The position numbers and the translations under genes were made by a program. DNA of 40,293 nucleotides, taken from positions 1 to 40,293 of IMG/VR virus record IMGVR_UViG_3300044707_000286; one strand, written 5' to 3'. The notes below the pieces were generated by a model that worked only from the letters and a program-made list of their open reading frames with translations, made no database searches and was not told where the DNA came from. Every line of letters starts with the position of its first letter. Position 1 is the first letter of the stretch. This document shows positions 10,692 to 38,927 of the stretch, piece by piece. The DNA is from a virus. Lineage: Duplodnaviria; Caudoviricetes.

Positions 10692-10734
10692 GGAATCGCG
10701 GGTATGGTATCAGTCAAAACTCTGTAGTCAAAAA

Positions 10735-16700: not shown

Positions 16701-19700
16701 TCGCCCCCGGCGTGGACACAATGTTGTCTGCCATCTGCCCATCTGCGGTCATCAACCGAATGCCGCCGAGTTGATCTCGGTATCCTTCTCCAACCGCTTT
16801 TGCTTGTGCAAAATAAAGCCCCCATCCATAAGCCTGCGCTCCTTCGCCGGTTCCGATTTTGTCCAGGCTAAACTTGTCCACCTTGTGCGGCGTGCCGTGG
16901 AATGCGCCGATGCTGTAGTTTGCAGGGCCGGTGATCGTGGCGTTGCTGGCGCGAATGGAGGGAGTATCAGTCGAAACGGCGTTGGTTCGGGAGCCGATGG
17001 AGAAGTCCATGAGCATCTGCCCGCCATCGGTGATGATGTCACCGCTCGCCCGCTCCCGGGTGGTGTCCACCATCGTCTGCTGGTTGAGTCCCACGGATTC
17101 GGCGAGGAAGCCTTCAAAGTTGGAGTCGATCTTGCCTTCGGCGATTGCTCGCTTGAGGCGGTAGGCTCGGCGGAAGATGTCTTTCACCACAACGGCTATC
17201 CGGCGCAAGAACCCACGGAGTCCTCCGGGGATTTGCTCGTCACGGATTTTCCCGTTCATGTAAGCGACCGCGACATCGGAGAATGATTCGATGACATCGG
17301 TGTCGGTCTCGGTGCGGAGCTTGCGCTCGGTTCGCTCGCTTTCGATGAGCGGGATGACTTGGTTGAGTTGCTCGCGCACCCAATCCATGGACACTCGCCC
17401 CTCGGCAAGCGCCCGCTTGAGGTTGTCCTGCGAGAAGTCTCGCATGACCTCAATGCCGGTCGCCCCATCTTGGATGCGGATGACTGACCGGTAGATGCCC
17501 TCTGCAAGCGCCCCTTGGTTGCTGGCGAGAACCGGGAACTGCGCGAGTTCGGAGGGTTCGTTGATGTCCATGCCGAATGCGCGGACGGTTTGGAAAAGGT
17601 TGTCGAGGTTTTGCTCCGTAGGGTTTGCCTCGTATTCATCGAGCAGGTTGCGCGGAGCGTCATCGAGAACCAGTTTTTGAATGTCCTCGCCACGGGAAAT
17701 CGCTTGGTTGACTCGGTCTATGAATTGCAAGGACTCCACGATGCCGGTGGTCGCCCCGGTGATCCGAGTGCGAAGCATTTCCCGGTGAGCGGTCATGGCG
17801 GACTGCTCGTCCTCGCTGCGGTAAGCAACCGTGCCTTTCTCGTCGCGCACAACAAAGACCGGCTTGCCGTTTTCTCCTTGCTCGCGAGTCATGGTTGGCA
17901 GGGTTGGGTCTTCCTGCATGGACTTGGCCTCATCAATCTTTGTCTCCATGTAGGAGATGCCCGCCTTGATGTTGTCGGGAGTGAGTTTTTTGTATTCGGC
18001 TTGCAATGCCGCCTGCCGGTCCTGCGGAGTCTGGTTGTCCTCCACCCGCTTGATCGCGGCTTCGTCCATGCCGAATGTCCGGTAGAGATCGAGGCGCTCG
18101 TTGAAATCGTTGAACCGCTTCCCATCGGCCATGGTGGCAACGCCGGTTCCGATGAGGATGCCGGGGATCGTTGCGGCAAGGACATCGAGGCGGGAGGTTC
18201 CCCATTGCCCGAGCGTTTCCCGCCAATTCACATCCGGCACATCCGCGCCCAATGCATCAGCGACATCTTGCACGACCGGAGTGACCAAGTCCTGCGTTCC
18301 CTCCACGATGTTCTCGCCCACGACAGCAGTCCCAAATCGGATGCCTGCGCTGCCAGCACGACCGACTCGCGCCGGGTTGCCGATCTTGGACATCAGTTTT
18401 TCAAACGCCGGGAGCTTGCCGAAAATCATCTTGGCACCGACACGCTCTAGCCCGGATTGCAGGATCGCACTTGGCGCGGCAATCGCCCGGGCAGTTCCGG
18501 GATCGACTCCATCAAGGCGCAGTTTGTTGTATTCTTCGGAATAAATCGCCGCGCCTGTCATCCAAGGACCGACTCCGGGGACAAGCGCCATGCCGGTGTA
18601 AGCAAGCGCCTGCGGAGACCCGTATGCCATCGCCTCCATGAATCCGCCAAATCCTCCCTCATTGATTTTTTTGATCGGGTCGAATTGATTGTCGGCAATG
18701 TTGAAAAGCTCCCGGTAAACTTGCAGCCGGTCGAATTTCTTCTGCGCCTCGGCGGTCAGTTCGGTGCGTTCCTCGGGGGTGATTTCTTTGGCGTTGGATT
18801 GGTCGAACCCGGGGTAGACGGTCAGCTTGCCGGTGTCGGTATCTTTCCAGACCTTTGGTGCTTCCTTGAGAAGTTGCAGTTCTGAATAAGCGGCATCCTC
18901 CTGCATGACCATCGAGCCGGATCGGAACATATTGAGCGTCCGACTCCATGATTCTCCCCATTGTTCCAAAAATTCCTTGGGTTCCTGCCCAGCTTGCTTT
19001 GCTCCAAGAACCACGGCGGCATAGGCGCGGTCGCGAACCTCGGGCGGCATGGTTGCCAGCGTGTCGGCGAGGGCTTCGATCTCCTGCACGGATTTAGGAT
19101 TGTCCTCCCCGGCCCGCTTGGTGTCCCGCCCGGTTACCGCAGCGAGGTGGTCGTAAACTTGCTTGAGAGGTTCGGAGTAGTTCCGAAGCATCCCTTCGGT
19201 CTCGGTGGCGTAATCCGATGCGGCTTGGAGCAACCCGGATTCCCAGCCCGCTGGCAATTTTTTGAGTTTCTCGGCGTTGCGTTCTTTCCAGATGCTGACA
19301 AGTTTCGGCACCTCGACCGCCGTGCCTTGGCCAATGCTGTCAAATAATCCCAAGGCAATGTCCCCGGGGATTTCGTTGGCCGATTGCATCACCTCATTTC
19401 GGGACTGCACTCCCTGCTGGATGAGGCCAAAGGTTTCCTTTTCCGAGAGACCCTTTTTGCCAAACGCCTGTTGTGTCCAGATGTCGCGCTTGGCCGGGTA
19501 GATCATCCCTTGGTCTTCGACCGTCTCTCCAAGTTGGTTGGCAATGAATTGCCGATTGGCAATCTGGTAGCGTGATTCCTCGTCCAGATCGGAATATCCT
19601 TCGTCCGAAATGTAATTGTCGAAATCGGTGTAAACCCGGGTGAGGTGATCCCATTCTTGCTTGTTACGCTCGGCATCCTTGGCATCCGCCCATGCCTCCA

Positions 19701-19806
19701 GAGCTTTTAATTTTGTGCCGTCATCCTCGACTGAATTCGTGTTGAGTTCGTTGTAGTATTGGGATGCCGTCTCGTCATCGATCACGGCGGTGCGGAGTGT
19801 GGACAT
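10735..19806 (-). CDS. Giant internal virion / DNA ejection polyvalent protein (3023 aa)
   Basis: Occupies the position of T7 gp16. Contains two ADP-ribosyltransferase-like modules (FHGTPH..GLYFA..NYVVFD; YHGT..FFT..YPVYL..KNPLD..GYDG..QVKSATGNRGTFD) and an HhH-glycosylase-like module (WY..SPQ..KVRNF..TIDTH..Q...W), delimited by NYSI motifs. Confidence 0.85.
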   Translation of the reverse strand: MSTLRTAVIDDETASQYYNELNTNSVEDDGTKLKALEAWADAKDAERNKQEWDHLTRVYTDFDNYISDEGYSDLDEESRYQIANRQFIANQLGETVEDQGMIYPAKRDIWTQQAFGKKGLSEKETFGLIQQGVQSRNEVMQSANEIPGDIALGLFDSIGQGTAVEVPKLVSIWKERNAEKLKKLPAGWESGLLQAASDYATETEGMLRNYSEPLKQVYDHLAAVTGRDTKRAGEDNPKSVQEIEALADTLATMPPEVRDRAYAAVVLGAKQAGQEPKEFLEQWGESWSRTLNMFRSGSMVMQEDAAYSELQLLKEAPKVWKDTDTGKLTVYPGFDQSNAKEITPEERTELTAEAQKKFDRLQVYRELFNIADNQFDPIKKINEGGFGGFMEAMAYGSPQALAYTGMALVPGVGPWMTGAAIYSEEYNKLRLDGVDPGTARAIAAPSAILQSGLERVGAKMIFGKLPAFEKLMSKIGNPARVGRAGSAGIRFGTAVVGENIVEGTQDLVTPVVQDVADALGADVPDVNWRETLGQWGTSRLDVLAATIPGILIGTGVATMADGKRFNDFNERLDLYRTFGMDEAAIKRVEDNQTPQDRQAALQAEYKKLTPDNIKAGISYMETKIDEAKSMQEDPTLPTMTREQGENGKPVFVVRDEKGTVAYRSEDEQSAMTAHREMLRTRITGATTGIVESLQFIDRVNQAISRGEDIQKLVLDDAPRNLLDEYEANPTEQNLDNLFQTVRAFGMDINEPSELAQFPVLASNQGALAEGIYRSVIRIQDGATGIEVMRDFSQDNLKRALAEGRVSMDWVREQLNQVIPLIESERTERKLRTETDTDVIESFSDVAVAYMNGKIRDEQIPGGLRGFLRRIAVVVKDIFRRAYRLKRAIAEGKIDSNFEGFLAESVGLNQQTMVDTTRERASGDIITDGGQMLMDFSIGSRTNAVSTDTPSIRASNATITGPANYSIGAFHGTPHKVDKFSLDKIGTGEGAQAYGWGLYFAQAKAVGEGYRDQLGGIRLMTADGQMADNIVSTPGAKKILKEARAFWKQTKSLDGFVKQLEASKSQSKVWAAQGDNVESNSQYVKDVDEVLSVIKDATPTQTGNLYSVELDVEPEELLDWDKPIIEQSRLVFKRLRESEFTKALTGSYGDKTAGEFYTQLSNINGGQQQASQVLSEAGIPGIRYLDGGSRSDGEGTHNYVVFDENLIKITEENGNRIPASEALAQPVSTDTNYSIGTPQFKGWFGESKVVDSDGKPMVVYHGTQRADRVGDRFRKSRATSGPMAFFTNDPAIASSYSTNKRDTSAEMPSDYAEWFKYKGKGMRSPVAIDRAWWNLSPEERAAVNERIYTIGYSDWDAGEGPIVADSQSIMPRDSIDYELRQARGNGLRALVEMWLSSGSLFNQEERFLEVLQAAGVKGATLDDPNAARSAVYPVYLSIKNPLDTANIPGDVVSALEQAGKRKRAKQSAGGNPDAWDKNTISGNDWMAALKEDMAKGTTHAWTRIPDWVTETLSSLGYDGIKDTGGKNGGVQHEVWIPFNETQVKSATGNRGTFDPTSANINYSIGIARNAISQVSDKDDASRVGTAKLGTSKVPKNTPQDSNVSGDNVPDDLLAKQMEKMNYAHLPKNILSEKDPKKKRRKLINWFKKNLLALHDAFPEEFRARATHWYDGANRIAKGMGSQFQASVEQASGVIAVFSPQKDWFMNVAQAEQFMELWTNSQDVVLEESLVRAEIEGIIEAATVADKQKRKKVDGETKEQTAERREYNKALDKLEKEKRRKIVEQVIGKTIRQLDATPTLQGWGIRVLAQVTFGRNYRNLSPEGDRLGMATNDDGALAKNGWGSINEIEKAVRIMKDGSLKNISDNLGNEHKVRNFYNNIAAPNTPYGDATIDTHAVAAAHLMPYGAKATEVGHNFGSGMNGSEVLGISGVYHLYLDAYREAAADRGILPRQMQSITWEAIRLVYPAATKNAATLAKSQKTWKDLTDANARNTLVGGRIPSPVWAGANDNRESQALSSGLQEDGSRDVSGGGLLSGVRPTGAGRDGGVNYSIASQSEIDRVNRALGGMNRGPDERLKVYERARAKFQGVMERNREALESLNKDTAKFRRTQLLQGLGELDAILSVFPPDIRGRVGGYTKLANIAPMDVFKDGEKVSEVSGMNGALISAWMRQGMSIGQAGQQTELPPGYTTKENLATARADRALADFFKQRIGMIDREVEKSLRKEYDAAFKKLLDRTKPKKAAPGEKPKGIGADIQDLFTVVRSAVEMDAVSVAAHIAGLDAKIASGELTAEQEARAQVEAALVALVGDWRNADADRRKSALDEATRIWEGAYAAHAQKVIQLREQREVARLEAIQATGKAGQLAGRKSKAIADSGLKGSWKDYILNLLNFDQVAGILFGENSETANTLIDRQRAAENAKEDGQQAKMQALEDYFTNLAGGNLLAGEQLRYNLAQPSMEVQGIKLSELEGLSAVMMWEQEDGRRHMTGELDETGNPTGAWNYDQDFVDEIMANLSPEALQLRDWLLKQYADEYGNINAVYAELNGVNLPQIRNYSPVTVQPISAPTGQVLDPVSGSAMSGASTSPGALRTRGTAIAEPRFQDVLQTYIAHTLQMEHWKAFAPYIAEANAVLRNRDVQNSVEEKGGAEARKILNAWLDYFAQGGTRDAGAHLALNQGISNVLGRASQVALIGRASTLLVQSTQLGAAVAEMPVKAYLKRMGKLLTGQLGWDAALNSPYIQRRIAQMPPVVQMAMQGLKGAKPTAIQQAGKRLGNLLSGADGLFTAGTYAITYDYHLTKAQELGLTGAEAESYARNIAERVTDRIAQPTRPGARSLYENTSTNPLARAGWAFASEARKNLALVAYSFAERPLATRMRTLAYVVALNSIASSILRSIWRDILDDEDDELFDDKYWSPKRIALAVATEPLYGFPVLGSTAQNAIYAAFGEYKPTGSMFDVDRAINPVKRIPEYLSGDFEMRDVMRDIDMIVSAMGIAHPNIAAAASITHLAKDLFNLGDSAVDAVTED
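13668..13853 (-). CDS. Nested 61-aa acidic ORF in the +1 frame of the giant gene
   Basis: GGAAGGA lies 8 nt upstream of the ATG; the sequence is protein-like; the stop falls at the NYSI module boundary. Confidence 0.5.
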   Translation of the reverse strand: MPTPETLLSEEEFQAQYGLEPTTIENLKRSQAAYKKMGVEMSLEEVYFLEFDQPEQAETEE

Positions 19807-22449: not shown

Positions 22450-22860
22450 TTACTCTTCCTCCTTTGTCGAAACAAAAAGTTGCACTAAATCTTTTGTTGC
22501 CGCTTGGAACCCCTGCCGCTCCAACACGCGGGCGATGCCAGAATAGGTGAAGACGGCCATGGTATGGTAGCCAAGTTCGCGGGCCATTTTTTTGAGGCAA
22601 GCCACGCAATGCCGGAAAGCGAGCAGGGCGGTTTTCAAGGAAAGGCCCGGGGCGCTTGCGGCGTGGTCGATCATGCACATCCCACAGGAATTATCCATGT
22701 GCAGGAAGAGGGCGCTGACCGGTTGGCCGTCGATCTCGCAGACAACCCCACATTTGGGAAGCATGGCTTCTGGCAACCATGGTTTCCCATGCTTGGAAAC
22801 CCACTCCGAGAGCATCTCGTAGTCGGTCGGTTCGTAGTGGCGGATGTGAATGTCACTCAT
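22450..22860 (-). CDS. GNAT-fold protein (T7 gp13-position)
   Basis: IRHYEPTDYEML..W, ARELGY, LERQGF; located right after the nozzle gene. Confidence 0.6.
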   Translation of the reverse strand: MSDIHIRHYEPTDYEMLSEWVSKHGKPWLPEAMLPKCGVVCEIDGQPVSALFLHMDNSCGMCMIDHAASAPGLSLKTALLAFRHCVACLKKMARELGYHTMAVFTYSGIARVLERQGFQAATKDLVQLFVSTKEEE

Positions 22861-25612
22861 TGCCGTAAGCGTCCCACTTGGGAAGGATCGAGATGATGCA
22901 CATTGGGTAAGGTTCGGTCTGGCGGACATCGACATCGGCGTCGATGCCGAACGCTCCGCCGAGGATGATCTTTTGGTCGCCCGTGGTGGTCGTCGGGGCG
23001 AGAGCATACCATGTTCCATTATTTGTGCGAACTTCGCCGCCGCGACTCTTGAGGGTGCGCACGACGACTTGGTGGATGCGCTTCTTGCGCGACTGCGCGG
23101 TTCCATCCTCGAAATCGGCATCGAGCTTCATCGGGCGCAGCGTCGAGGTGTAGGGCAGGCCGAGGTAACCGGCAGAGGCGGATGGAATAGTTATCGATCC
23201 GCCGCTGACCGTGCGGATCGAGAAGCCCGAGTCCAGCATGACGGTAACGGTCTTGCCATTGAGGTGCGCGAGGCCGGAGACCGTGCGGCCTGCCGCCCCG
23301 GAGGCGAAGGCGACATGGCCGTCGAGGTAGCGGTAGTTCGCGGAAGATTGGTTGTCGAATTGGGTTCTCCACAAAAGCGGGAACCGCTCGATAGTGCGGT
23401 AATCCTGCCCGGAAACGGTGCGCTTCACGACCATCCAGACCTCGTCCTCTGTGCCGTTGCCGTAGATGGTGGCCACGGACTCGACATCGGCATTGTCGGC
23501 GATGGTGTGGCGGTGCCAGCCGACGACCTTCTGGTCGCGCTCGTAGGTCATGGCGATGAGGGTTCCGTCTCCTCGCACACACCAGAGGATCGCATCCGGT
23601 TGCTGCTGGTAGCCGATCTCGACAATCTCGCCATTGGTGATGTGTTCGGCCAATAAGGTGAGGTCTGGCGCGACCCATCCGTCTTTTCCGAATTCGTAAA
23701 CGAGTTCGCGCACCTTGCGTCCGTTGCGTTGCACGAAAAGCAGGACATCGTTGACGAGCGAGGCTCGCATATATTTCGAGCCGTAGGAGGACTGCTTGCG
23801 GGCCTCGACATTGGTTGCCGAAAGAGATTGTGCGGTGTCCGACGATCCGATTGTCCATTCGTCCCCGGTTGTTCCAACGAGCAATTTCGATTGCGAGTAA
23901 AGCCAATTGATGCGGTTGCCTTCCGAAGAAGCCAGCGTAAACGATACCGCATTGGACGCGGTTGACCCAATGGTGAAATTTTCAAAATTGTCAATTTCGC
24001 TCAACCATAGAGTCGTGGGCTGCTTGCTTGTCCCGCCGAATGCGAGGCGTTGTTCGTGGAGCGCCACGGCGCGGGGGTAGCCAGACACTCCAGAGAATGC
24101 CGGTTCTTTCCAATCAGTAGTCGGATTATTTTTAGCATTGGCTCCCAGCCATTCGACTACATTAGCTTGAGCAGAGAGGCCATCTGCCGCGACTGAAAAT
24201 ATGCTAACCACTCCGCCTGTTCTGTATTCAGAATTTGAAAGCACACATCTTGGCGATGTGTCTTTTGCGTAGGTAAAAAGTCCGTTGGACAAAGAAGAAA
24301 TTGTCAGCATCGGAGTGCTAACAATTCCCCCCACAATGGATACCGTGGTCACGCCCGGTGTGATTGCGGCATTTGTCAACGAGACCGCCCCGCCAGAGGT
24401 CGTGGTGATGTTGAAGGTGTTTCCAGAAACATTCGAGACCGAATAGGTTGTCGTGCCGTTCAATCCGGACCCGGATGGCAAAAGCGAAAAGACAACCTCT
24501 TGCCCGTTTTTGATTGGCGGGTTGTAGGAACTCACCCAAATTTTCAATCCGCAGCGTTCGGACTCGTTTCCGCTAGTAACGACATTGCGATCCGCGTTGC
24601 CATCGTATTCGCGAACGATTTCCATTTGCGAAAGGTTTTCAATAGTAATTGATTGCGGTGTATTTACCCAAGTGTTAGTTGTTTGAACGCTATACGAATG
24701 TGTATCAATTACCGATATTTTATATGGAATATCTGATATCCACGCCGATGGGCCACCGAAAATATGAATGAAATCATTCGTTGCGTAACCATGATTGTAG
24801 TGAGTTATTGTGATAGTTGTTCCAGAACGAGTTCCGGTAACTTCAATCGGGCCACCAACCCATGTCTTGTTGGGGATTCGCATGATGCGAACAACGGCAT
24901 CCCATTTCCCAAAAGTAGTAAAATCCCAAGCTCCAATTGTATCTAAAGAATTGCTGACTATTGAGTCATTGATAGTTAAATCTAAAGATGCAGAAAGTCT
25001 TTTGTATTTCAGTCCCCACTTGGTGCCGACATGGCCGGACTTAAAGATGGGACTAGACGCGGTGAGAGCGGTTGAACCTTCAGATTGTGAAGAACTAATT
25101 GTGGTAGACGAATTGTTCTGCTCCAACTGCGGAGGGAACTCCCAATCGACAACTTCAAAAGTCCAGTTGTTGTCGGCGATACGCGAGAGTTTGCGCGGCG
25201 GGTAGTTTTCATGCGCGAAATACATGATGTCGTTGATCTGGACATATTGAATTTCGCGCAAGTCGGCCCCCACATAAGGATGTGAGACTTCCAAAATGCC
25301 GCCCGAGGTATTTGTCTGGAGTTGACCGGTGGTTGGGTTCCAGAACCTCATGTAACCCACGCCCATTTCGATGATGAACCGCGTGGTGGTCGAGAAGTTG
25401 AATCCAATCAAACGGACTTCGCCCGCCGTGACAAACTTGGTCGCGCCGAGGAATTGCGTCCCCGGGCGGCGGATCACGCCACCGTAGGGGAGGATTTGGA
25501 AGTTCTCCAAAGTGCGGCAGGCGCTGCGGTATTTCTCCAAGCTCGTCCGGGCGTCGATGAAGGGACTCACTTCACCGGCGTTGAACGAGGGATAGAAATC
25601 AAATTTTGGCAT
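22853..25612 (-). CDS. Tail tubular protein B / nozzle (T7 gp12-like)
   Basis: SFNAGEVSP, N....YGGVIRRPGT, YP.AVALHEQRL.FGG, LFVQRNGRKVRE, GWHRH, GLPYTS. Confidence 0.9.
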   Translation of the reverse strand: MPKFDFYPSFNAGEVSPFIDARTSLEKYRSACRTLENFQILPYGGVIRRPGTQFLGATKFVTAGEVRLIGFNFSTTTRFIIEMGVGYMRFWNPTTGQLQTNTSGGILEVSHPYVGADLREIQYVQINDIMYFAHENYPPRKLSRIADNNWTFEVVDWEFPPQLEQNNSSTTISSSQSEGSTALTASSPIFKSGHVGTKWGLKYKRLSASLDLTINDSIVSNSLDTIGAWDFTTFGKWDAVVRIMRIPNKTWVGGPIEVTGTRSGTTITITHYNHGYATNDFIHIFGGPSAWISDIPYKISVIDTHSYSVQTTNTWVNTPQSITIENLSQMEIVREYDGNADRNVVTSGNESERCGLKIWVSSYNPPIKNGQEVVFSLLPSGSGLNGTTTYSVSNVSGNTFNITTTSGGAVSLTNAAITPGVTTVSIVGGIVSTPMLTISSLSNGLFTYAKDTSPRCVLSNSEYRTGGVVSIFSVAADGLSAQANVVEWLGANAKNNPTTDWKEPAFSGVSGYPRAVALHEQRLAFGGTSKQPTTLWLSEIDNFENFTIGSTASNAVSFTLASSEGNRINWLYSQSKLLVGTTGDEWTIGSSDTAQSLSATNVEARKQSSYGSKYMRASLVNDVLLFVQRNGRKVRELVYEFGKDGWVAPDLTLLAEHITNGEIVEIGYQQQPDAILWCVRGDGTLIAMTYERDQKVVGWHRHTIADNADVESVATIYGNGTEDEVWMVVKRTVSGQDYRTIERFPLLWRTQFDNQSSANYRYLDGHVAFASGAAGRTVSGLAHLNGKTVTVMLDSGFSIRTVSGGSITIPSASAGYLGLPYTSTLRPMKLDADFEDGTAQSRKKRIHQVVVRTLKSRGGEVRTNNGTWYALAPTTTTGDQKIILGGAFGIDADVDVRQTEPYPMCIISILPKWDAYGNE

Positions 25613-29101: not shown

Positions 29102-29455
29102 TTAGCTGTAGGTGAGAGATTCGCGGTCATTCCAGATGCCCGATGCGGTCGCGGTAGCGACCACGGCTCCGGAATTATCAATCGTCACTTGGCGGATCGA
29201 CCAACCGGAGGCAGAAGTGGCGGTTCCTTCAAAGGCAATGCCGGTGTAGTAAATGAGGTTGTTGGTGCTGTTCACCGCAAAACGGCGCTCGCGCCTCATT
29301 GGCGAGTAGCCGAGGGAGTTCCATGCGGTGGTGCCTGTTCCGATTTTGAATTTGTTGGTATCGACCTCCAACCCCATCTCGCCCTCTGCGAGGGTAGGAT
29401 TTGCTGTAGTCCATTCTGCGGCGGTGCCGCGACGAAGTTGAATTTGTTGTGCCAT
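29102..29455 (-). CDS. Small tail fibre protein with Mtd N-terminal-like domain
   Basis: MAQQIQLRRGTAAEWTTANPTLAEGEMGLEVDTNKFKIGTGTTAWNSLGY. Confidence 0.75.
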   Translation of the reverse strand: MAQQIQLRRGTAAEWTTANPTLAEGEMGLEVDTNKFKIGTGTTAWNSLGYSPMRRERRFAVNSTNNLIYYTGIAFEGTATSASGWSIRQVTIDNSGAVVATATASGIWNDRESLTYS

Positions 29456-31179
29456 TAGGGTGTGCCTCCGACGATGTTGTTTGTTCCTCCGTAGATCGTG
29501 GCTGGGGTGCCTCCATCGATGTTGCCGAGCGTTTCGCCTGCGTAGCCATTCACGACCTCGACCCACGCATTGTCGTAGCGCACATAGGTGCGGAGGGTGG
29601 TCTCGTCGAACCACACCATGCCCGCTTGCGGCGATGCTGGCGGGGTGGGTGAGGTGACGATGGCAATCGGGCCGGTGGGGATGGTGAAATTAAAAACGGC
29701 AGCAGCCGAGGTTCCGGCGTTTGTGACCAAGGCCGACGATCCCGCTGGTCCGGTCGTAGTGGTTCCGACTGCAATGGTCGCCGCATCGCCTTTGTCTCCG
29801 CGAGGGATGGTGAAATCCAGAACCGCTGCGCTCGGGGTGCCGGTGTTCGTGATCGAGGCGCTGGACCCGGGAGCGCCGGTCGTGACCGTGCCGACCGACA
29901 TGGTGCCGGTGTCGCCCTTGACGCCCTGCGGAATGGCAAAATCAAAAACGGCGGCAGCGGAATTTCCCGAGTTAGTGACCGAGGCATTGGTCCCCGGCAG
30001 GCCGGTGGTTGTGCTGCCCACGGCCACGGTAGCGGCATCGCCTTTGTCTCCCTTGGGGATTTCGAGGTTGAGCGTCTGGTTGGGCGCGGTGCCGGTGATG
30101 GTCGCGCCAGCGGATGAACCGGCGGCTCCCGTGCTGACCGTGCCGACCGAGAGGGTGTTGGCGGGACCGACCGGCCCTTGCGGGAGTCCGAAATTCAAGA
30201 CCGCCGTGTCGTATTGGCCGGTGTTGGTGACGGTGGGGGTTGTTCCGGTGGGCAGCGAGGTGACGGTGCCGACCGTGACTTGGAGCGAAGGATAGCTGAT
30301 CCCACCCGCCGGTCCGCCGCCGGTCGCCTTCGATGTCTCGATGCCATCGCCGCCATTGCGCGAGGAGACGAGTTTGGAGGACATCCACGCCGGTTTGATC
30401 TTCCCCTTGCGCTCGGTGGAATCCCGGCGCATGGCGGGGTTTTTGCCGAGCAGTTCGGTTTCTTTCGCGAGCAGCGCGGCCTTGTTGGCATCGCCGGTCA
30501 GCGGGACGGCGAGCTTGGCGGCGAGGTTAGCCGTGAGGAGGTCTATGAAGAGCGAGTCGAAAGCCGTGACCTCGGTGACTTTGCGGACATATTCCAGCGT
30601 GATGGCGGACCCGAGCCAGATATCCCAATCGGTCGTCCAATTCGCGGTGACGCCGGGTTGCTTGGTCGATCCTGCGACCATGCACTTGTAGACCGCTCCG
30701 TTGTTGGAAACGGCATTGCCGATCTCATACACACGATCCACGACCCATGCCGGGGAACCGGAATCGGCGTTGGTGTAAATGAAGTTGCCAAGGATTTCCC
30801 ACGCCGATTCGCCAGCGGAATCGTAGTCGTTCACCCTAAAGACGCGCAGGCAGTCGGACGGGATCGCGTAGCGGTAGGCCCACTTGTATTCCGGGCGCGG
30901 GAGGGTTTCGATGACCGTGGTGGCCTTCATGGCCCATGTCCATGAACCGGCAAGCAGGAGGGCATCGCGCACCTGCGGGTAGAGGGACTTGGCAAGCAGG
31001 AGAGCGTGAGAAGACGCTCCGAATTGTTCGCCGGTTCCGATTCGCAGGATCGCTTGGCGGCAGAGTTCGTCCTCGGAAATCGAGACCGAGGGACGGAACG
31101 CCGCTCGACTTTCAACCGCCGCTTTGAGGGCCGGTTGAGAGGTGAGGTATTGAAGTTCTGCGAAGAACTGCTCTTTCAT
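29455..31179 (-). CDS. Adaptor (gp11-like) domain 6 with a CBM-like insert, fused to fibre repeats
   Basis: ELCRQAILRIG...W.WA...Y.YRYAIPSDCLRV...FDSLF...LAAKLAVPLTG, then about 5 VGT(V/T)TT..PG..A.(V/I)TN.G..A...F.IP.G repeats. Confidence 0.8.
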   Translation of the reverse strand: MKEQFFAELQYLTSQPALKAAVESRAAFRPSVSISEDELCRQAILRIGTGEQFGASSHALLLAKSLYPQVRDALLLAGSWTWAMKATTVIETLPRPEYKWAYRYAIPSDCLRVFRVNDYDSAGESAWEILGNFIYTNADSGSPAWVVDRVYEIGNAVSNNGAVYKCMVAGSTKQPGVTANWTTDWDIWLGSAITLEYVRKVTEVTAFDSLFIDLLTANLAAKLAVPLTGDANKAALLAKETELLGKNPAMRRDSTERKGKIKPAWMSSKLVSSRNGGDGIETSKATGGGPAGGISYPSLQVTVGTVTSLPTGTTPTVTNTGQYDTAVLNFGLPQGPVGPANTLSVGTVSTGAAGSSAGATITGTAPNQTLNLEIPKGDKGDAATVAVGSTTTGLPGTNASVTNSGNSAAAVFDFAIPQGVKGDTGTMSVGTVTTGAPGSSASITNTGTPSAAVLDFTIPRGDKGDAATIAVGTTTTGPAGSSALVTNAGTSAAAVFNFTIPTGPIAIVTSPTPPASPQAGMVWFDETTLRTYVRYDNAWVEVVNGYAGETLGNIDGGTPATIYGGTNNIVGGTP

Positions 31180-32837
31180 TTTTTAACAGGTGCCGCTGCC
31201 GATCCGATTTCGAGGAGTTGGGCGAGTTTCATCGCCAGCGTGACGATCAGCACATTCACAAAGACCGGCGGGTATTTGGTGACATCCGAGACAATGGAAA
31301 TGGTTTCAACTTGGATGGGCGAAACTTCGTTTGTGTGGATGTAACCGGAAACAATTTCCCATTTGCCGAAGTTCTCGTCCTCGTCCACGCCGTTGACGCG
31401 AAGCACCTTGAGGGTGCCGGTTGGGAGGGCATAGCGCCTACTGTAACCAAACGCCGGGGCGGTCGGGTCGGCGTTGATCGTGGCTTGCGCCCGGGCGAAC
31501 TGCCAATCGTAGTCGGAAAGCACCTCATTGCGGGTCTGGTCGTAAAGACTGGTAGCAATCGCCATTGGCTCCCCGTAAGGTTTGAAAGCCTCGGCGGTGC
31601 CGATTCGCAGGATGGCTTGGCGGCAAATTTCGGAAACCGAGTTGGCGGCGGTAGTAGTGCGAGGTTTGGCCGACTTTTCGATGAGGATGCGGATGCTTGG
31701 TCGCGACATCGTTTCGATGGCGAGAGTAGCCATGGCTTGTGCGATTTCCCCTTTTTGCGTGAGCGGCATGGAAATCTTGGCCGCGAGGCGGGCGATCAGA
31801 GCTTCCGTAAAAGGAGGAGGAAACTTGGTCACATCGGTTTGCTTCCAAGTGTAGTCGATTTTGACAGGAGAACCGAGGTCCGTGTGAAGATACCCACCAA
31901 CGATTTCCCATTGGCCGAAATTCTCGGAGGAATCAATGTTTTCCACCCGGATGAGTTGCAGGAAATCGCTGGGCAGGGCATAGCGTTTGGTAAATCCTTG
32001 GGTCGGCGCAGCGGCATCCGCCGTGATGCTCAACTGCTTTTTGGCAAACGCCCACGGAACATCGGAAAGCAGTTCCTCCAAGGTCTGGTCGTAGAAGGAA
32101 TTGGCAAATACCATCGGTTGCTTGATGAGGGTCTCCGAAGACCCCAACCGCATGATCGCCTGCTTGCAAATTTGTGTGCGTGTGGTGATGGTATTGGTTG
32201 CCATCGAGTCCGCGATGGATTCGATCTCGCGTTTCAAGGCGGACCGCTCGGCGAGCGTTTCAAATTCCTTGATTGCCGCGACCGCTTGATCGCCCAGCCC
32301 CATTGCCATCGCCAGTTTGTAGGCCATGCGGACCACGACCATTTCCTTGAAGATCGCCGGATAAGTGGTGTCGCTGGCGGGGGGGGCGATGTAGTCGATG
32401 GCAATCGGCGTGGCAAGATTGGTGTGGATGAACGCGCCAACTTCCTCCCATGTTCCAAAATTTTCCGCCGAATCGATGCCATTGATTCGCATGATTTTCA
32501 AAGAACCGCTTGGGGTTGGGTATCGGAAATCGTAGCCGGTCACCGGGTTGGTGCCGTCCTTTGCCACGCTCCCGACTTGTTGGCGAGCAAACCGCCAATC
32601 AAACTCTGAAAGAATTTCCAGCACCGTGGGTTGGTAGAATTTCGCGGCGAAGACAAAGGGTTGACCTTGATTTTTGTAGGTCTCCGCATTGCCAACCCGA
32701 AGGATCGCCTGCCGGATGAGTTCCGAAGCGGTTGCGGTAAGGGTGCCACTATAGTTGGCGACCGACTCGATGTTTTCCAGCAAGGCCGGTTTTGCCATCA
32801 AGAATTGAAGTTCTTGGAACAGGGCTTCGTATTTCAT
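31176..32837 (-). CDS. Tandem adaptor (gp11-like) domains 3-5
   Basis: Three repeats starting ELIRQAILRVG, QICKQAIMRLG and EICRQAILRIG, each with W.FA and (F/Y)P..F...L...LA.K motifs. Confidence 0.8.
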   Translation of the reverse strand: MKYEALFQELQFLMAKPALLENIESVANYSGTLTATASELIRQAILRVGNAETYKNQGQPFVFAAKFYQPTVLEILSEFDWRFARQQVGSVAKDGTNPVTGYDFRYPTPSGSLKIMRINGIDSAENFGTWEEVGAFIHTNLATPIAIDYIAPPASDTTYPAIFKEMVVVRMAYKLAMAMGLGDQAVAAIKEFETLAERSALKREIESIADSMATNTITTRTQICKQAIMRLGSSETLIKQPMVFANSFYDQTLEELLSDVPWAFAKKQLSITADAAAPTQGFTKRYALPSDFLQLIRVENIDSSENFGQWEIVGGYLHTDLGSPVKIDYTWKQTDVTKFPPPFTEALIARLAAKISMPLTQKGEIAQAMATLAIETMSRPSIRILIEKSAKPRTTTAANSVSEICRQAILRIGTAEAFKPYGEPMAIATSLYDQTRNEVLSDYDWQFARAQATINADPTAPAFGYSRRYALPTGTLKVLRVNGVDEDENFGKWEIVSGYIHTNEVSPIQVETISIVSDVTKYPPVFVNVLIVTLAMKLAQLLEIGSAAAPVKK

Positions 32838-33841
32838 TTGGATTCGATAATCCCGCACAATTTAAGCGCGAGGGTTGTGGTGAGGAGTTGAGTGAAGATG
32901 GGAGGGAACTTGGTCACATCGGTGACTTTCTCGGTGACAAGCAGTCGGACGGGTGTTCCGAGGTTGGTATGCAAATACTGCCCAACGACTTCCCATTGTC
33001 CGAGGTTCTCCGCAGAGTCGATGTTCTCGACGCGCCAGATTTTGAGGATGGAAGTTGGGAGGAGGTATCGTTTGGTGTAGCCCCCCGATCCGACATAGGG
33101 AGCCACGGCATCAGCCGTTAGGCCCGGGGTAGCGCGGGCAAACGCCCAATCAAAATCTCCAAGCAGTTCGTCACGGGTCTGCTCGTAAAGCGACTGCGCG
33201 AGAAGCATGGGTTCCCCGTAAGGCTTGAAGGCTTCCAGCGACCCGACCCGGAGGATGGCTTGGCGACAAATCTCGGTCACGGAATTCGCCGCCGAGGTCG
33301 TGGTCTTCGGCGCTTGCGTGTTGATGAGAAGCGAGCGGAGTCCGGGCTTCTGCATGGTTGCGCCAAAAAGTTCCGCCATTTGGCCGAACAGGTCTTTCGA
33401 GCCGGTCAGAGGCATGGCGAGGAGTCCGGCCAATTTGATTGTCAGTAATTCGACAAACAACGCCGGGAACTTCGCCGGGTCGGTCACGGCGGCAATGTAA
33501 TCGAGCGCGACCGGGGAAGAGAGGTTGGTGTGGATTTTGTCGGCGATGATTTCCCAAACGCCGAAGTTCTCGTTGGAATCCACATTCCCAAAACGAAGCA
33601 CCCGCAAGAAATCGGTCGGCAGGGTGTATTGAACCGAGTAGCCGGTAAGCGGGGCCGTGCCGCTGGTGAGGTTCACTTGCTTGCGGCAGAATTGCCAATC
33701 GTATTCGGCTTGGAGTTCCTCGACGGTCTGCGTGTAGAACAAACTGCAATACTGCGCTTGCGCCGTGGAATCGGTCAGCGCGGTGATTCGCGCATCCCCG
33801 AGGCGAGCGAGGGCCAGATTGCAGATTTGGATATCGGTCAT
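32834..33841 (-). CDS. Tail tubular protein A / adaptor (gp11-like), domains 1-2
   Basis: MTDIQICNLALARLG is the canonical gp11-like start; second copy starts EICRQAILRVG. Confidence 0.85.
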   Translation of the reverse strand: MTDIQICNLALARLGDARITALTDSTAQAQYCSLFYTQTVEELQAEYDWQFCRKQVNLTSGTAPLTGYSVQYTLPTDFLRVLRFGNVDSNENFGVWEIIADKIHTNLSSPVALDYIAAVTDPAKFPALFVELLTIKLAGLLAMPLTGSKDLFGQMAELFGATMQKPGLRSLLINTQAPKTTTSAANSVTEICRQAILRVGSLEAFKPYGEPMLLAQSLYEQTRDELLGDFDWAFARATPGLTADAVAPYVGSGGYTKRYLLPTSILKIWRVENIDSAENLGQWEVVGQYLHTNLGTPVRLLVTEKVTDVTKFPPIFTQLLTTTLALKLCGIIESK

Positions 33842-33896: not shown

Positions 33897-34802
33897 TTAG
33901 GCTTCGTCGCAGGCGATCTCGACGACCTTCTTCTCTTCCATGCGGACGGCGGCGAGGGATGCCACCGAACGGATTTGGAGCGAGTGCGAGAGGTCGGTGC
34001 GGATGTCCATGTGGGTCTTGAGTCCGCGCTCGGCGAGGATGACTCCGGATTTCACATAGGCGTAAACGCTGCGAACCGTTGCGGTTTTCGGAAGCAGTTG
34101 GGTGCGGCGGAATTTGAAACCCATGAAGGTATTCAAGTTGCCGTCCACCAAGGCGCGAACCGTGTTGTAGTCGGCGCTTGTGATTTTATCGTCACGGAGC
34201 AGGTCTTGAAGCTGCTTGGCCGAAACAACAATGATGCGCTCCTCCTCTTCATCGACATCGTTGGAGTCGAAAAGGAATTTCGCAGCGCGGAGCTTTGCGA
34301 TGGTGAGGCCGGAATTCGCGGCGGTGCCGGTTTCCACATACTGAACGCCCACTTTTTGGGTGGCAGGCAATAAAGTTTCAACAACGCCTGTCGGCCCTGT
34401 GTAGGCTTTACCACCCAAAGCGCCGATGATGATCGAGTCGCAGGTGCGACCGTAAGCCGCAGCATGGGATTGGATGATCGGGCTAGTTGGCAACACAACC
34501 TCGCCGAGCAACTGCTCGTCCCACTCATCGATGAGCTTCGCGGTGTCGTATTGGGTTGGACGAATCCAACGCTTGGCCATCGGTTGATTGCTGATCCGAG
34601 TGTCGCCGGAGCGATGCTCGATTGCAGTCATTGTGGCTGGGTCGATTTGATTGTAGGACTTCTCTTTTCCTTCGATGGAATCGATGGTCACATATTCTTT
34701 TAGCTTGGAATTTTTCTGCTGAACGAGGTGTTTCCAGTTGGAATCAAACTGGGTCGTGAAGTGGTCGGGGATGTTCGTTAGAACGCCGTTTTGGTTAGCC
34801 AT
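33897..34802 (-). CDS. Major capsid protein
   Basis: QF......LVQQ..SKL, A.AYGR..D..II, S.DYN..RALVDG....FMGFKF, AVRMEEKKVV; strong SD AAGGAG; follows the scaffold gene. Confidence 0.9.
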   Translation of the reverse strand: MANQNGVLTNIPDHFTTQFDSNWKHLVQQKNSKLKEYVTIDSIEGKEKSYNQIDPATMTAIEHRSGDTRISNQPMAKRWIRPTQYDTAKLIDEWDEQLLGEVVLPTSPIIQSHAAAYGRTCDSIIIGALGGKAYTGPTGVVETLLPATQKVGVQYVETGTAANSGLTIAKLRAAKFLFDSNDVDEEEERIIVVSAKQLQDLLRDDKITSADYNTVRALVDGNLNTFMGFKFRRTQLLPKTATVRSVYAYVKSGVILAERGLKTHMDIRTDLSHSLQIRSVASLAAVRMEEKKVVEIACDEA

Positions 34803-34963
34803 TTTTTTCTCCTTGTGTTGAGTTGGTTGGTATCAGTCGAAACTGATGGTTCGTTGCTCCCTCGCTTCCGAGTGTCCCGTGTGGGGTCTTCGACGGCGGG
34901 TATTAGGGAGCAGGCTCACAAAGGAGGTGTCTGCTCTGACGGAGGAGTGTGTAGCACACTCCG
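34803..34963 (-). promoter_or_regulatory. Structured 5' leader of the capsid gene
   Basis: Several stems, a UUCG hairpin and an internal anti-SD (see findings). Confidence 0.5.
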
Positions 34964-34981
34964 TGGTATCAGTCAAAAAAT

Positions 34982-35939: not shown

Positions 35940-35964
35940 AAATGGTATCAGTCAAAACCGCGCA

Positions 35965-36141: not shown

Positions 36142-36431
36142 TTTTTGATCTTTCGTTTGGGAGTTTCGATGTCGCCGTCCGCGATGACCGGGCGTTTCAG
36201 CATGGTCTCGATGTGGATGACCACGCCGCGCTGCCCGTCTCGCAAAGCGGCAACAACGGGGTTGTAGTCGTAGCCGGGGAGGAAAACTTGGCTTTCGGTC
36301 GCGAACTGCGCCTTGAGGTCGGCAATGACCGCTTGGCCTTCCTTGGAGGTGAACACACGGTGGTAAGCGTTGGTGATCTTTTGGCGTTCACGCTCGCGTT
36401 TCAACGCGGCGGCTTTGTCTTCGGGAGCCAT
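36138..36431 (-). CDS. Small head-associated protein (Bbp19-like)
   Basis: Y.RVFTSKEGQAVIADL...F...A.RDGQR.VV..I; immediately after the portal gene. Confidence 0.75.
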   Translation of the reverse strand: MAPEDKAAALKRERERQKITNAYHRVFTSKEGQAVIADLKAQFATESQVFLPGYDYNPVVAALRDGQRGVVIHIETMLKRPVIADGDIETPKRKIKK

Positions 36432-38101
36432 CACGCTTGTCCCATCATGCCGGGAAGCATTCCGGCGAGAGCGGAGTCCTGCCGCACGCTGCCCGCTTTG
36501 CCGAGTGCGCTTGCGGTTCGCTCCATCTGCTCGGCCTGCATTTGCTGCTGCGCGGCTTGGGCGCGGGCGGCTCGTTGCTGCGCGACCATTTCCTCGTCCA
36601 TCAGCCAACGAGCAGGGAGACCATCGTTGCGGGCCATGTCGCGGGTGATCTCGTCGAAGTCGAAGTTGTCGAGCATATCGGGCTTGATCTGCGCGTAGGG
36701 CAGAAGCATCTCGCTGGTGCGAACAAAAGCGGCGTTTTCAAGCTGCTTGATCGCGAGGGCGATTCGGGAGTTGTAGGCGATATCCGGCTCGGGGATGAAT
36801 CCGACCATCGCGAGTTGCTGGGGTGGGGGAGGGAACTTGCCTTGTCTGGCCAGCACCGCAAACACACGGCGCAGCATCGGATTGAATAGCTCGGTCGTCA
36901 TCCGGGCAAAGGTCGGCGAGAATTGAATGAGCTTTTCGGCGCTGCGCTCGGCCACCTCGCGAGCGGTCATCTGCTTTTCAAGTTGCGCGAACATCTTGAA
37001 AAGATCGACATGGAACGCCTCGTTGATCGCCTCACGCTTGTGGTTGGCTCGGTCCACGCCGATGTCGTAGCGCCCGCCGGTTCCCCATTCTTTCGGCATC
37101 GCCGAGGGGTTGTTGGGATCGAAATATGTCACGCCCCCGGCGCGGAGATCGATGTCGTTGTCGAATCCCGCTGGAATGAGAATGCGCGGGAACGCATGAA
37201 TCTCGGCGAGCGAGTCGAGTTGCTTTTCCAGAAAGTTGAGTTGCTTGCATTCCGGCAGCGCGGTCCAGCTTGGCGAGTAGCCATAGGCTTCGCAGGATTT
37301 CCACTTGAGGTAACGAGTGACGAAAAACGGTTGCTCGTCGTAACCCGAAACCATCAGCACATGGCGCGAGGCTTTCTCAATGTAAACCGAGGCATACGGC
37401 TTGTTGTTCGCGTCCTTCTTGCCGAGTTCGATCTCGCCCGGCCCCCGGGGATAGATCATGTGGATGATCGTGTATTTCTTGGAGGACTTGGTCGCCTCCA
37501 GTTCCTTCCGCATCGCTTCGGGCAGCGCCTCGACGCCGAACTTCAGCGCGGCTTGCCGGGCGGTCATTTCGTATTCGCGGGAGAGCGTATCGACATAGCC
37601 CTCGTCGTTCTCCGCGATGGCGAACGATCCGATGTCGAGCTTAACAAAGTTGAGCGGGGAATTGCGACCGGCCTCGACCAGAATTGCCGCCGTGCCGAAT
37701 GCGCCACGGTCGAGATAAAGTTCGTGAATCTCCGTGTAAAAATTGCTTCGCGTGAGTTCGGACTGCACGACTTCCGTGCATCGTTTGAACCATTGCTCCA
37801 CCGCATCCTCGGATTCCATTTCCTTCGGTGCGTCCATCGAGAACCAACGGGATTCCATCGGAGTCATCCACGCGAGTTGGCCGTTCGCGAGAATCATGTT
37901 CGCCCGAACCGCCGTGGCATCAAATAGCGCCGTCTCGTCGGCAATGTCCGGCTGCGACTGCTGGGTGAATAGACCGGCTTTCCGTGGCATCACGAACTTC
38001 GCGATGTCCTCCCACAAGGTTTCCCAAGTGGTGCGCTGCTGCACCATTTCTTGGTGCCTTTGGATTACCTTCTCGACGAGTTCGGGATTTTTTCCGGTCA
38101 T
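36431..38101 (-). CDS. Portal (head-tail connector) protein, T7/BPP-1-like
   Basis: WEDIAKFVMPRK, FDATA..AN..LA, SNFY, FGTA, YGYSP, MTAREV.ER..EK. Confidence 0.92.
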   Translation of the reverse strand: MTGKNPELVEKVIQRHQEMVQQRTTWETLWEDIAKFVMPRKAGLFTQQSQPDIADETALFDATAVRANMILANGQLAWMTPMESRWFSMDAPKEMESEDAVEQWFKRCTEVVQSELTRSNFYTEIHELYLDRGAFGTAAILVEAGRNSPLNFVKLDIGSFAIAENDEGYVDTLSREYEMTARQAALKFGVEALPEAMRKELEATKSSKKYTIIHMIYPRGPGEIELGKKDANNKPYASVYIEKASRHVLMVSGYDEQPFFVTRYLKWKSCEAYGYSPSWTALPECKQLNFLEKQLDSLAEIHAFPRILIPAGFDNDIDLRAGGVTYFDPNNPSAMPKEWGTGGRYDIGVDRANHKREAINEAFHVDLFKMFAQLEKQMTAREVAERSAEKLIQFSPTFARMTTELFNPMLRRVFAVLARQGKFPPPPQQLAMVGFIPEPDIAYNSRIALAIKQLENAAFVRTSEMLLPYAQIKPDMLDNFDFDEITRDMARNDGLPARWLMDEEMVAQQRAARAQAAQQQMQAEQMERTASALGKAGSVRQDSALAGMLPGMMGQA

Positions 38102-38121
38102 TGGTATCAGTCAAAACTGCA

Positions 38122-38580: not shown

Positions 38581-38927
38581 CGCGTTTGGAGTTTCGAGGT
38601 TTCGTAAATCCGGAGAGGGCGGTCTCGCCGACTCCATGCGATGAAGGGAAGTGTATACGGCGCGAAGTTGCAAGGGTTATTTTGACTGATACCGCAATAT
38701 ATAGTGATCAGCCAGCAGTTCTGACACAACCGGCGGTATGTGTGGGCGGCATCGCGCCAGCGTTCCTCGGGGTCAAAAATGTCCACCGGGCGGGCCAGAA
38801 GGAAGAAGTCCTCGGTGTTCACGACCACGCCATTCCAAGCGGTGAGTTCGACCTCCTCGGCGAAACATCGCGGCTGCGGGTAGCGCCGGTAGAGGTCGAG
38901 GATTTGGAGTTCCAGTTCGCGTTTCAC
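38532..38927 (-). CDS. Hypothetical protein
   Basis: GTGA-coupled to the terL stop; 131 aa. Confidence 0.6.
   Translation of the reverse strand: MKRELELQILDLYRRYPQPRCFAEEVELTAWNGVVVNTEDFFLLARPVDIFDPEERWRDAAHTYRRLCQNCWLITIYCGISQNNPCNFAPYTLPFIAWSRRDRPLRIYETSKLQTRCDLLTTPKTQFSPPV

Follow-up and report, generated by a model that had tools for sequence, protein, structure and literature searches.

The window analysed here is IMG/VR virus record IMGVR_UViG_3300044707_000286, a stretch of 40,293 bp that constitutes a complete phage genome with direct terminal repeats. Three consecutive open reading frames (ORFs) on its minus strand encode six tandem adaptor domains of the T7 gp11 type, which probably build six stacked 12-mer rings and thereby a polyprotein-made neck of about 25-35 nm. 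The arrangement A B | C A' B' | C', with two domains in ORF1, three in ORF2 and one in ORF3, had been proposed by an earlier, sequence-only reading and it is borne out by pairwise blastp among the repeats (E 1e-13 to 1e-60, identity 23-56%) as well as by matches to phrog_394, which cover two stretches in ORF1, three in ORF2 and one in ORF3.

In the proposed assembly, twelve copies of each of the three chains would form six coaxial rings between portal and nozzle, each chain extending parallel to the axis of the tube. Helix 4 and the portal-gripping arm of one-domain adaptors, to which the linkers are homologous, would in this geometry have become the connection to the next domain. Copy 6 (C') would hold the portal with its free arm and carry the fibre repeats on display, copy 1 (A) would receive the hexameric nozzle at its helix1-helix2 loop, and copies 2-5 would act as spacers whose number sets the neck length. 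At both gene breaks the downstream protein would donate helix 4 to the upstream domain, so that three separate, translationally coupled proteins would plug together without recoding. The length estimate follows from 4.6 nm per ring, as in crAss001, to 6 nm per ring, as in Pa223.

Fold of the repeats and donation of a helix

A gp11-type fold of the repeats, which had been suspected from the sequence, is supported by phmmer, Foldseek and VIA matches to gp11-type adaptors. The Carin-1 connector (8CK1_E) was matched by phmmer with E 1e-10; together with LME-1 orf17, whose adaptor entry (9EFK) contains 12 chains, it is the only solved structure with a sequence relationship. The AlphaFold model of ORF2 (mean predicted local distance difference test, pLDDT, 78.7; predicted template modelling score, pTM, 0.40) aligned with Carin-1 at VIA Z 16.4 (root-mean-square deviation 4.2 over 179), followed by LME-1 (15.0), T7 gp11 (11.8), GP4 (10.0), Pa223 (9.3) and the crAss001 ring proteins (8.1). 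A four-helix bundle with an inserted beta barrel was recognised from the AlphaFold secondary structure of C, A' and B' in the ORF2 model and of A- and B-type copies in the model of a natural fused protein, P0124, besides the Foldseek and VIA matches. B and B' each contribute only three helices from their own chain, and C' was assigned from its sequence. All eight segments, that is six domains and two leaders, are under purifying selection, with ratios of nonsynonymous to synonymous polymorphism (pN/pS) of 0.11-0.24 in 23 genomes.

Both ORF breaks are ATGA overlaps that directly follow the LA.KL helix in B and in B', ORF2 and ORF3 begin with N-terminal helices, and copies 1-2 and 4-5 share their junction (PKTTTSAANSVTEICRQAILRVG / PRTTTAANSVSEICRQAILRIG), all as the sequence-only reading had described. 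A sequencing error at the breaks is ruled out by contigs from independent runs that carry no indels and by the conservation of the breaks among relatives. Contigs of public run X2 span both junctions without indel (31047-31771 and 32778-33025, 0 differences), and contigs of public run X3, equally without indels, cover 30821-31716 with 16 differences and 32227-33019 with none; neither is the possible source run. The raw-read runs X21 and X22 gave no alignments. The break point, also expected to be conserved, fell after helix 3 in all 126 junctions listed (75 IMG/VR loci and the window), with a tail of 2-14 residues. The downstream ORF opens with an MK..LF.EL helix, 33-35 residues ahead of its first domain, with a single row, L069, as exception, and its Met-Lys start is invariant.

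The helix at the start of the next ORF was also found to be the missing terminal helix, as had been proposed. On a profile built from 79 in-chain helix-4 linkers, 30 of 30 distinct leaders scored 12.6-32.3 bits, while 600 shuffles reached at most 11.0. In P0124 (1063 aa, six domains, two contigs) junction 1 is fused in frame, and this fusion is recent because its B domain (residues 401-500) is 98-99% identical to split relatives. The P0124 model places a helix directly after helix 3 of B (pLDDT 72/65), the in-chain helix 4 of the two preceding domains having values of 65/74/63 and 68/57 and the orphan N-terminal helix in the ORF2 model 50/48/38. In the alignment behind the P0124 model one of ten rows was out of register, and there was almost no support beyond residue ~516. 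The modelled fold supports helix donation, through which the separate chains would bind one another.

The history of the repeats was approached with a quick tree that combined 68 family domains with seven one-domain adaptors (75 rows, 144 columns, Shimodaira-Hasegawa-like approximate likelihood-ratio support). A grouped with the one-domain adaptors (support 99), A', C and C' each formed their own clade (99-100), and B and B' were sisters (96). The duplication of a three-domain unit, which the labels A/A' and C/C' had implied, did not hold up, since only B and B' pair in the tree; an ABC triplet duplication was rejected, A lying with the one-domain adaptors and A' and C' in separate clades. Judged from these sequences, the duplicated unit is the B cassette with its break.

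Copy number, terminal copies and competing explanations

Relatives were collected from three IMG/VR scans and one genome scan with ORF2, capsid and C' as queries (best 80 per scan). Among the 188 loci examined, window included, 110 had an upstream capsid gene and the terminal motif; 42 capsid-bearing loci were incomplete, apparently cut by contig or locus ends, and L082 (Phycisphaerales, 30%) was dropped because no domain match was found in it. The complete loci and L075, added by hand, gave 59 distinct regions in 47 clusters at 95% identity, the counts of which are not population frequencies, the ORF2 query favouring six copies. The layouts were 2 (14 clusters), 2|1 (two), 3|1 (four), 4|1 (three), 2|3|1 (23) and 3|3|1 (one). 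A came first and C' last in all 47, in the orders A C'; A B'|C'; A X B'|C'; A X A' B'|C'; A B|C A' B'|C'; and A X B|C A' B'|C'. A comparison of 61 full portals showed that pairs at 96.9-99.5% identity differ in adaptor count in nine of ten layout comparisons, the tenth standing at 88.8%; for instance, portals 98.6% identical accompany six versus five copies, and six versus two. The three clusters of 5-copy arrays are anchored by the major capsid protein, and two of them extend to the nozzle gene or past the last domain. Relatives share the break position, and their copy number ranges from 2 to 7.

More distant adaptor polyproteins were found in a profile search of 1.84 billion representatives. 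They were numerous among the best 150 of this search, which ranks multi-repeat proteins first, and with this ranking at least two repeats were present in 105 of the 152 proteins recounted (one domain in 47 proteins, two in 36, three in 27, four in 16, five in 13, six in four, seven in three, eight in three, and nine, 11 and 16 in one each). The longest were the Logan proteins P0252, P0297, P0285 and P0269, with 8-16 partly degenerate repeats, whose middle copies match part of the profile. If each repeat forms a ring, proteins with 8-16 repeats would correspond to tails of siphovirus-like length. P0361 lies in a podophage module in which a single chain of six domains is encoded between the capsid gene and the nozzle gene; its relative has four domains. 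Genomic context for P0252 (16 stretches) and P0250 (seven) was not found in IMG/VR, and among 50,697 records of cultured phages none covers 80% of ORF2 or P0241.

The two ends of the array differ. In T7, acidic residues of the helix1-helix2 loop are described as binding the nozzle, and the C-terminal helix as embracing the portal (PMC6702177); in the distal ring of crAss001, residues 15-26 in the helix1-helix2 region meet the 6-fold muzzle (PMC10172136). Hidden Markov models (HMMs) of loop and arm were built from 69 one-domain adaptors. The loop model exceeded 5 bits in 47 of 47 first copies (mean 34.9), in none of 116 middle copies and in none of 47 last copies. The arm model averaged 9.0 bits in last copies (n=45, 43 above 5), -0.4 in first and 0.4 in middle copies; the part of this result that is free of circularity is the absence of the arm from the 163 first and middle copies. 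In parallel, the loop scored best in the first copy of 60 of 96 distant polyproteins against 31.8 expected. The window itself agrees with the earlier description in that the canonical C-terminus is found in copy 6 only and is followed by fibre-like repeats. Loop and portal arm do not occur on the same domain here, and the chains hold two, three and one domains. From this we infer that C' would form the portal-side ring and A the nozzle-side ring.

This division bears on the rival proposed by the sequence-only reading, according to which a single symmetry-broken, pseudo-dodecameric ring is made up of six different domains, each present twice. Copy numbers of 6, 4, 3 and 2, found in 43 of the 47 clusters, all divide 12, the arm and linker of ~23 residues could also bridge neighbours within a ring, and AlphaFold leaves the geometry free. 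However, arrays of five (three clusters) and seven copies cannot tile 12, near-identical portals carry two to six copies, and distant chains have 7-16 repeats. In a single ring every position must contact both portal and nozzle, whereas in a stack only the end rings do; with the loop confined to copy 1 and the arm to copy 6, the single ring is disfavoured. Furthermore, G-X-Y fibres are trimeric, and if those of ORF3 are as well, two copies of it could not make one while twelve would give four. This proposal is very unlikely. Somewhat different is the idea that one or two domains sit in rings and the others form a flexible decorated collar, or that the polyproteins are cut and assembled in another order. 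Low pTM would fit beads on a string, inserts are tolerated in the beta domains (a CBM-like one in C', a nozzle-like one in A'), and the repeats of P0252 and P0297 cover the profile incompletely. Nevertheless, all six copies retain the full helical bundle and are under similar purifying selection, and the nozzle and portal features lie at opposite ends of the array, which puts the middle copies on the path between them. We regard such a collar or cleavage as improbable.

Stacked rings might also be made from one chain of ~1460 aa, produced by -1 slippage or readthrough at the junctions, and slippage of this kind had been put forward from the sequence. The out-of-frame junctions are indeed all in the -1 frame (gaps -4, -1 and +5) and none in the +1 frame, junction 2 of the window reads AAA AAA TGA, and P0124 shows that a fused junction 1 exists. 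Among cluster representatives, however, the 24 first junctions comprise 21 ATGA overlaps, one TAATG and two in-frame TAA stops, and the 33 last junctions 15 ATGA overlaps and 18 in-frame TAA stops, at which a -1 slip leaves the frame. A slippery heptamer was present in none of the first and in eight of the last junctions, so that the conserved heptamer expected beside the -1 phase in programmed -1 frameshifting was not found. The invariance of the Met-Lys start also speaks against recoding, the A before ATG is ordinary in the window (14 of 20 genes), and P0124 is the only protein above 968 aa that a weak search returned. A single chain is therefore extremely improbable; translational coupling of three proteins explains all junction phases, and low-level slippage may occur in some members. 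A variant of the stack concerns ORF1 and ORF2, which end in sister B-type domains, and ORF2 and ORF3, which start with near-identical helices (in many relatives MKSEELFKELQFLMSKPAL and MKSEELFKELQFLAGKPAL). With such sockets and plugs, ORF2 might be skipped or repeated by donor-helix exchange, one genome giving necks of 3, 6 or 9 rings; we give this plug-and-socket scheme an outside chance.

Several observations weigh against the stack of six rings. The AlphaFold models (pTM 0.40 for ORF2, 0.26 for P0124) do not fix the geometry between domains, for which reason axial stacking is deduced rather than seen. Of the two end features, the arm gives the weaker signal: its HMM rises above 5 bits in 14 of 116 middle copies, just 4 of the 69 one-domain adaptors contain the strict arm motif, and the arm was best in the last copy in only 41 of 96 distant polyproteins against 31.8 expected. 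A first position-specific arm matrix failed to separate last from other copies and was replaced by the HMM, and the finding of the arm in 45 of 45 last copies is partly circular, since an RRDS-type motif had served to recognise complete loci. The evidence for seven copies comes from L075, in which the contig end truncates the last domain, and from L074 and P0124, which are without the last ORF. Finally, the breaks persist although unsplit chains of two, four and six domains exist.

Genome setting and neighbouring features

The minus-strand genes are ordered terminase, portal, Bbp19-like protein, putative scaffold, major capsid protein, the three adaptor ORFs and fibre genes, and then a 919-aa phrog_376 tail protein, ejection-type proteins of up to 3023 aa, lysin and integrase. 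The phrog_376 protein is presumably a gp12-type nozzle, a label that we assign from its position and size. The adaptor ORFs thus lie after the capsid gene, with the portal upstream and the nozzle downstream, which is the gene position of a gp11-type adaptor. With its integrase gene, the window phage is a temperate podophage. Among cellular records, the nearest are prophage-like loci with two adaptor domains in two Verrucomicrobia metagenome-assembled genomes (MAGs). One of these loci lies on a Terrimicrobiaceae scaffold of 432 kb, and its portal and terminase are 90.6% and 95% identical to those of the window; on the basis of these two MAGs the host is probably a member of the Verrucomicrobia. 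The 16 runs that contain at least half of the window's words are lake-water, freshwater or unlabelled metagenomes, and one of them may be the source. RNA runs contain small shares (0.05-0.11).

Table 1. Features of the window discussed in the text, with positions in the 40,293-bp stretch.
Feature	Position	Strand	Remark
ORF1, 335 aa, domains A and B	32834..33841	minus	B without helix 4
Domain A with its helix 4 and linker	33284..33841	minus	sole copy with single-domain-type helix1-helix2 loop, about 33734-33802
Domain B	32837..33283	minus	ends after helix 3
Junction 1, ATGA overlap	32834..32837	minus	fused in frame in natural protein P0124
ORF2, 553 aa (from ATG at 32837), donor helix and domains C, A', B'	31176..32837	minus	
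ORF2 N-terminal helix 4 and linker (35 aa)	32733..32837	minus	homologous to in-chain helix 4; predicted to complete B
Domain C with helix 4 and linker	32184..32732	minus	
Domain A' with helix 4 and linker	31641..32183	minus	~90-aa insert in beta domain of some relatives
Domain B'	31179..31640	minus	ends after helix 3 and a variable tail; sister of B
Junction 2, ATGA overlap here	31176..31179	minus	in-frame TAA stop in many relatives
ORF3, 574 aa, donor helix, C' and fibre-like repeats	29455..31179	minus	
ORF3 N-terminal helix 4 and linker (34 aa)	31078..31179	minus	predicted to complete B'
Domain C', ~50-aa insert, free C-terminal arm	30340..31077	minus	arm RRDS..PAW..S.LV..R about 30358-30429, only there
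About five ~42-aa fibre-like repeats, short G-X-Y runs	29650..30290 (approximate limits)	minus	
Major capsid protein	33897..34802	minus	directly upstream of adaptor ORFs
Portal	36431..38101	minus	Pfam Head-tail_con
919-aa tail protein	22853..25612	minus	phrog_376
3023-aa protein	10735-19806	minus	ejection-protein position
TTTTGACTGATACC boxes (12 in all, eight placed)	445-458, 1874-1887, 10706-10719, 34829-34842, 34965-34978, 35944-35957, 38103-38116 (minus); 38680-38693 (plus)	minus, plus	

Several parts of the adaptor ORFs vary. The insert of C' resembles CBM_5_12 at 18.3 bits, below the Pfam cut-off of 26.2. After C', the extension in relatives measures 30 to 752 residues with 0 to 13 collagen-type triplets and is absent in L080; this appendage is exchangeable and does not depend on the number of rings. 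A module of ~80 aa is common to the window's nozzle (aa 370-448) and the A' beta-domain insert in the second adaptor ORF of L042 (45% identical, E 1e-11). This module, which gives a weak E1_FCCH-like Pfam match in the nozzle and is shared with A' of some relatives, is a mobile surface domain.

Capsid genes are mosaic among these phages: relative to the window, L003 has a portal 98.6%, a nozzle 99.9% and a capsid protein 76% identical, and L081 has a capsid 88% identical, yet a 2-domain adaptor. The 14-bp box TTTTGACTGATACC occurs 12 times in the window at up to two mismatches against a chance mean of 0.10, often just 5' of start codons (portal, scaffold, capsid), and exact copies were found in 145 of 194 fetched loci; a phage promoter or operator is possible. 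The 3023-aa protein contains ART-PolyVal (PF18760, above cut-off) and DUF7178 domains and is probably a polyvalent protein injected into the host bacterium.

Comparison with known adaptor systems

The textbook short-tailed phage has a single adaptor ring. If the stack is real, many unrelated podophages lengthen their neck by tandem repeats inside the adaptor gene, and neck length would be readable from sequence, with no tape measure. The natural series of two to seven rings on near-identical portals would offer a testable link between tail length and the thickness of the host envelope or capsule. Speculatively, and by analogy with crAss001, extra neck length might serve to cross a thick host capsule or envelope, or to store ejection cargo. 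Splitting a domain in its middle and donating the missing helix would be an unusual way of ordering tube assembly and possibly a design rule for length-programmed protein nanotubes. Should the plug-and-socket scheme hold, the tail would be tunable and tape-measure-free and, with chains of up to 16 repeats, would represent a separate, adaptor-ring-only way to a long phage tail.

A multi-ring barrel has been called a defining feature of crassviruses, and the tail barrel of crAss001 (PDB 7QOJ) contains five rings, formed by ring proteins R1-R5, over ~23 nm (PMC10172136). Like the window, crAss001 has several paralogous adaptor-fold domains between portal and nozzle-like protein, and in both groups the number of paralogues varies among relatives. 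The crAss001 rings are nevertheless encoded by separate one-domain genes, 15-31% identical, in a 100-kb Bacteroidetes phage, whereas the domains of the window are fused in tandem, 23-56% identical and split mid-domain in a 40-kb temperate phage; neither separate one-domain ring genes nor a Crassvirales genome was found here.

T7 gp11, the Carin-1 connector (8CK1), LME-1 orf17 and phrog_394 share with the window their fold and post-capsid gene position, their helix1-helix2 loop being that of copy 1 and their C-terminal arm that of copy 6. In contrast to the window, these one-domain podophage adaptors have one domain per gene, one ring, and loop and arm on the same domain. In Pa223, gp63 is one protein used twice in two rings (120 A), which stack coaxially, the C-terminal segment binding the portal or the ring above, and GP4 has a two-ring tail made from two genes (gp81/gp82), as cited in the preprint on Pa223 (10.1101/2025.06.11.659172). 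Unlike the window, neither has a covalent tandem or donor helix, and both have only two rings. The literature searched yielded no description of adaptor arrays that are fused covalently or split at a helix, with supplements and most subscription journals outside the search. Stacked adaptor rings made from separate genes, or from one protein used twice, are known.

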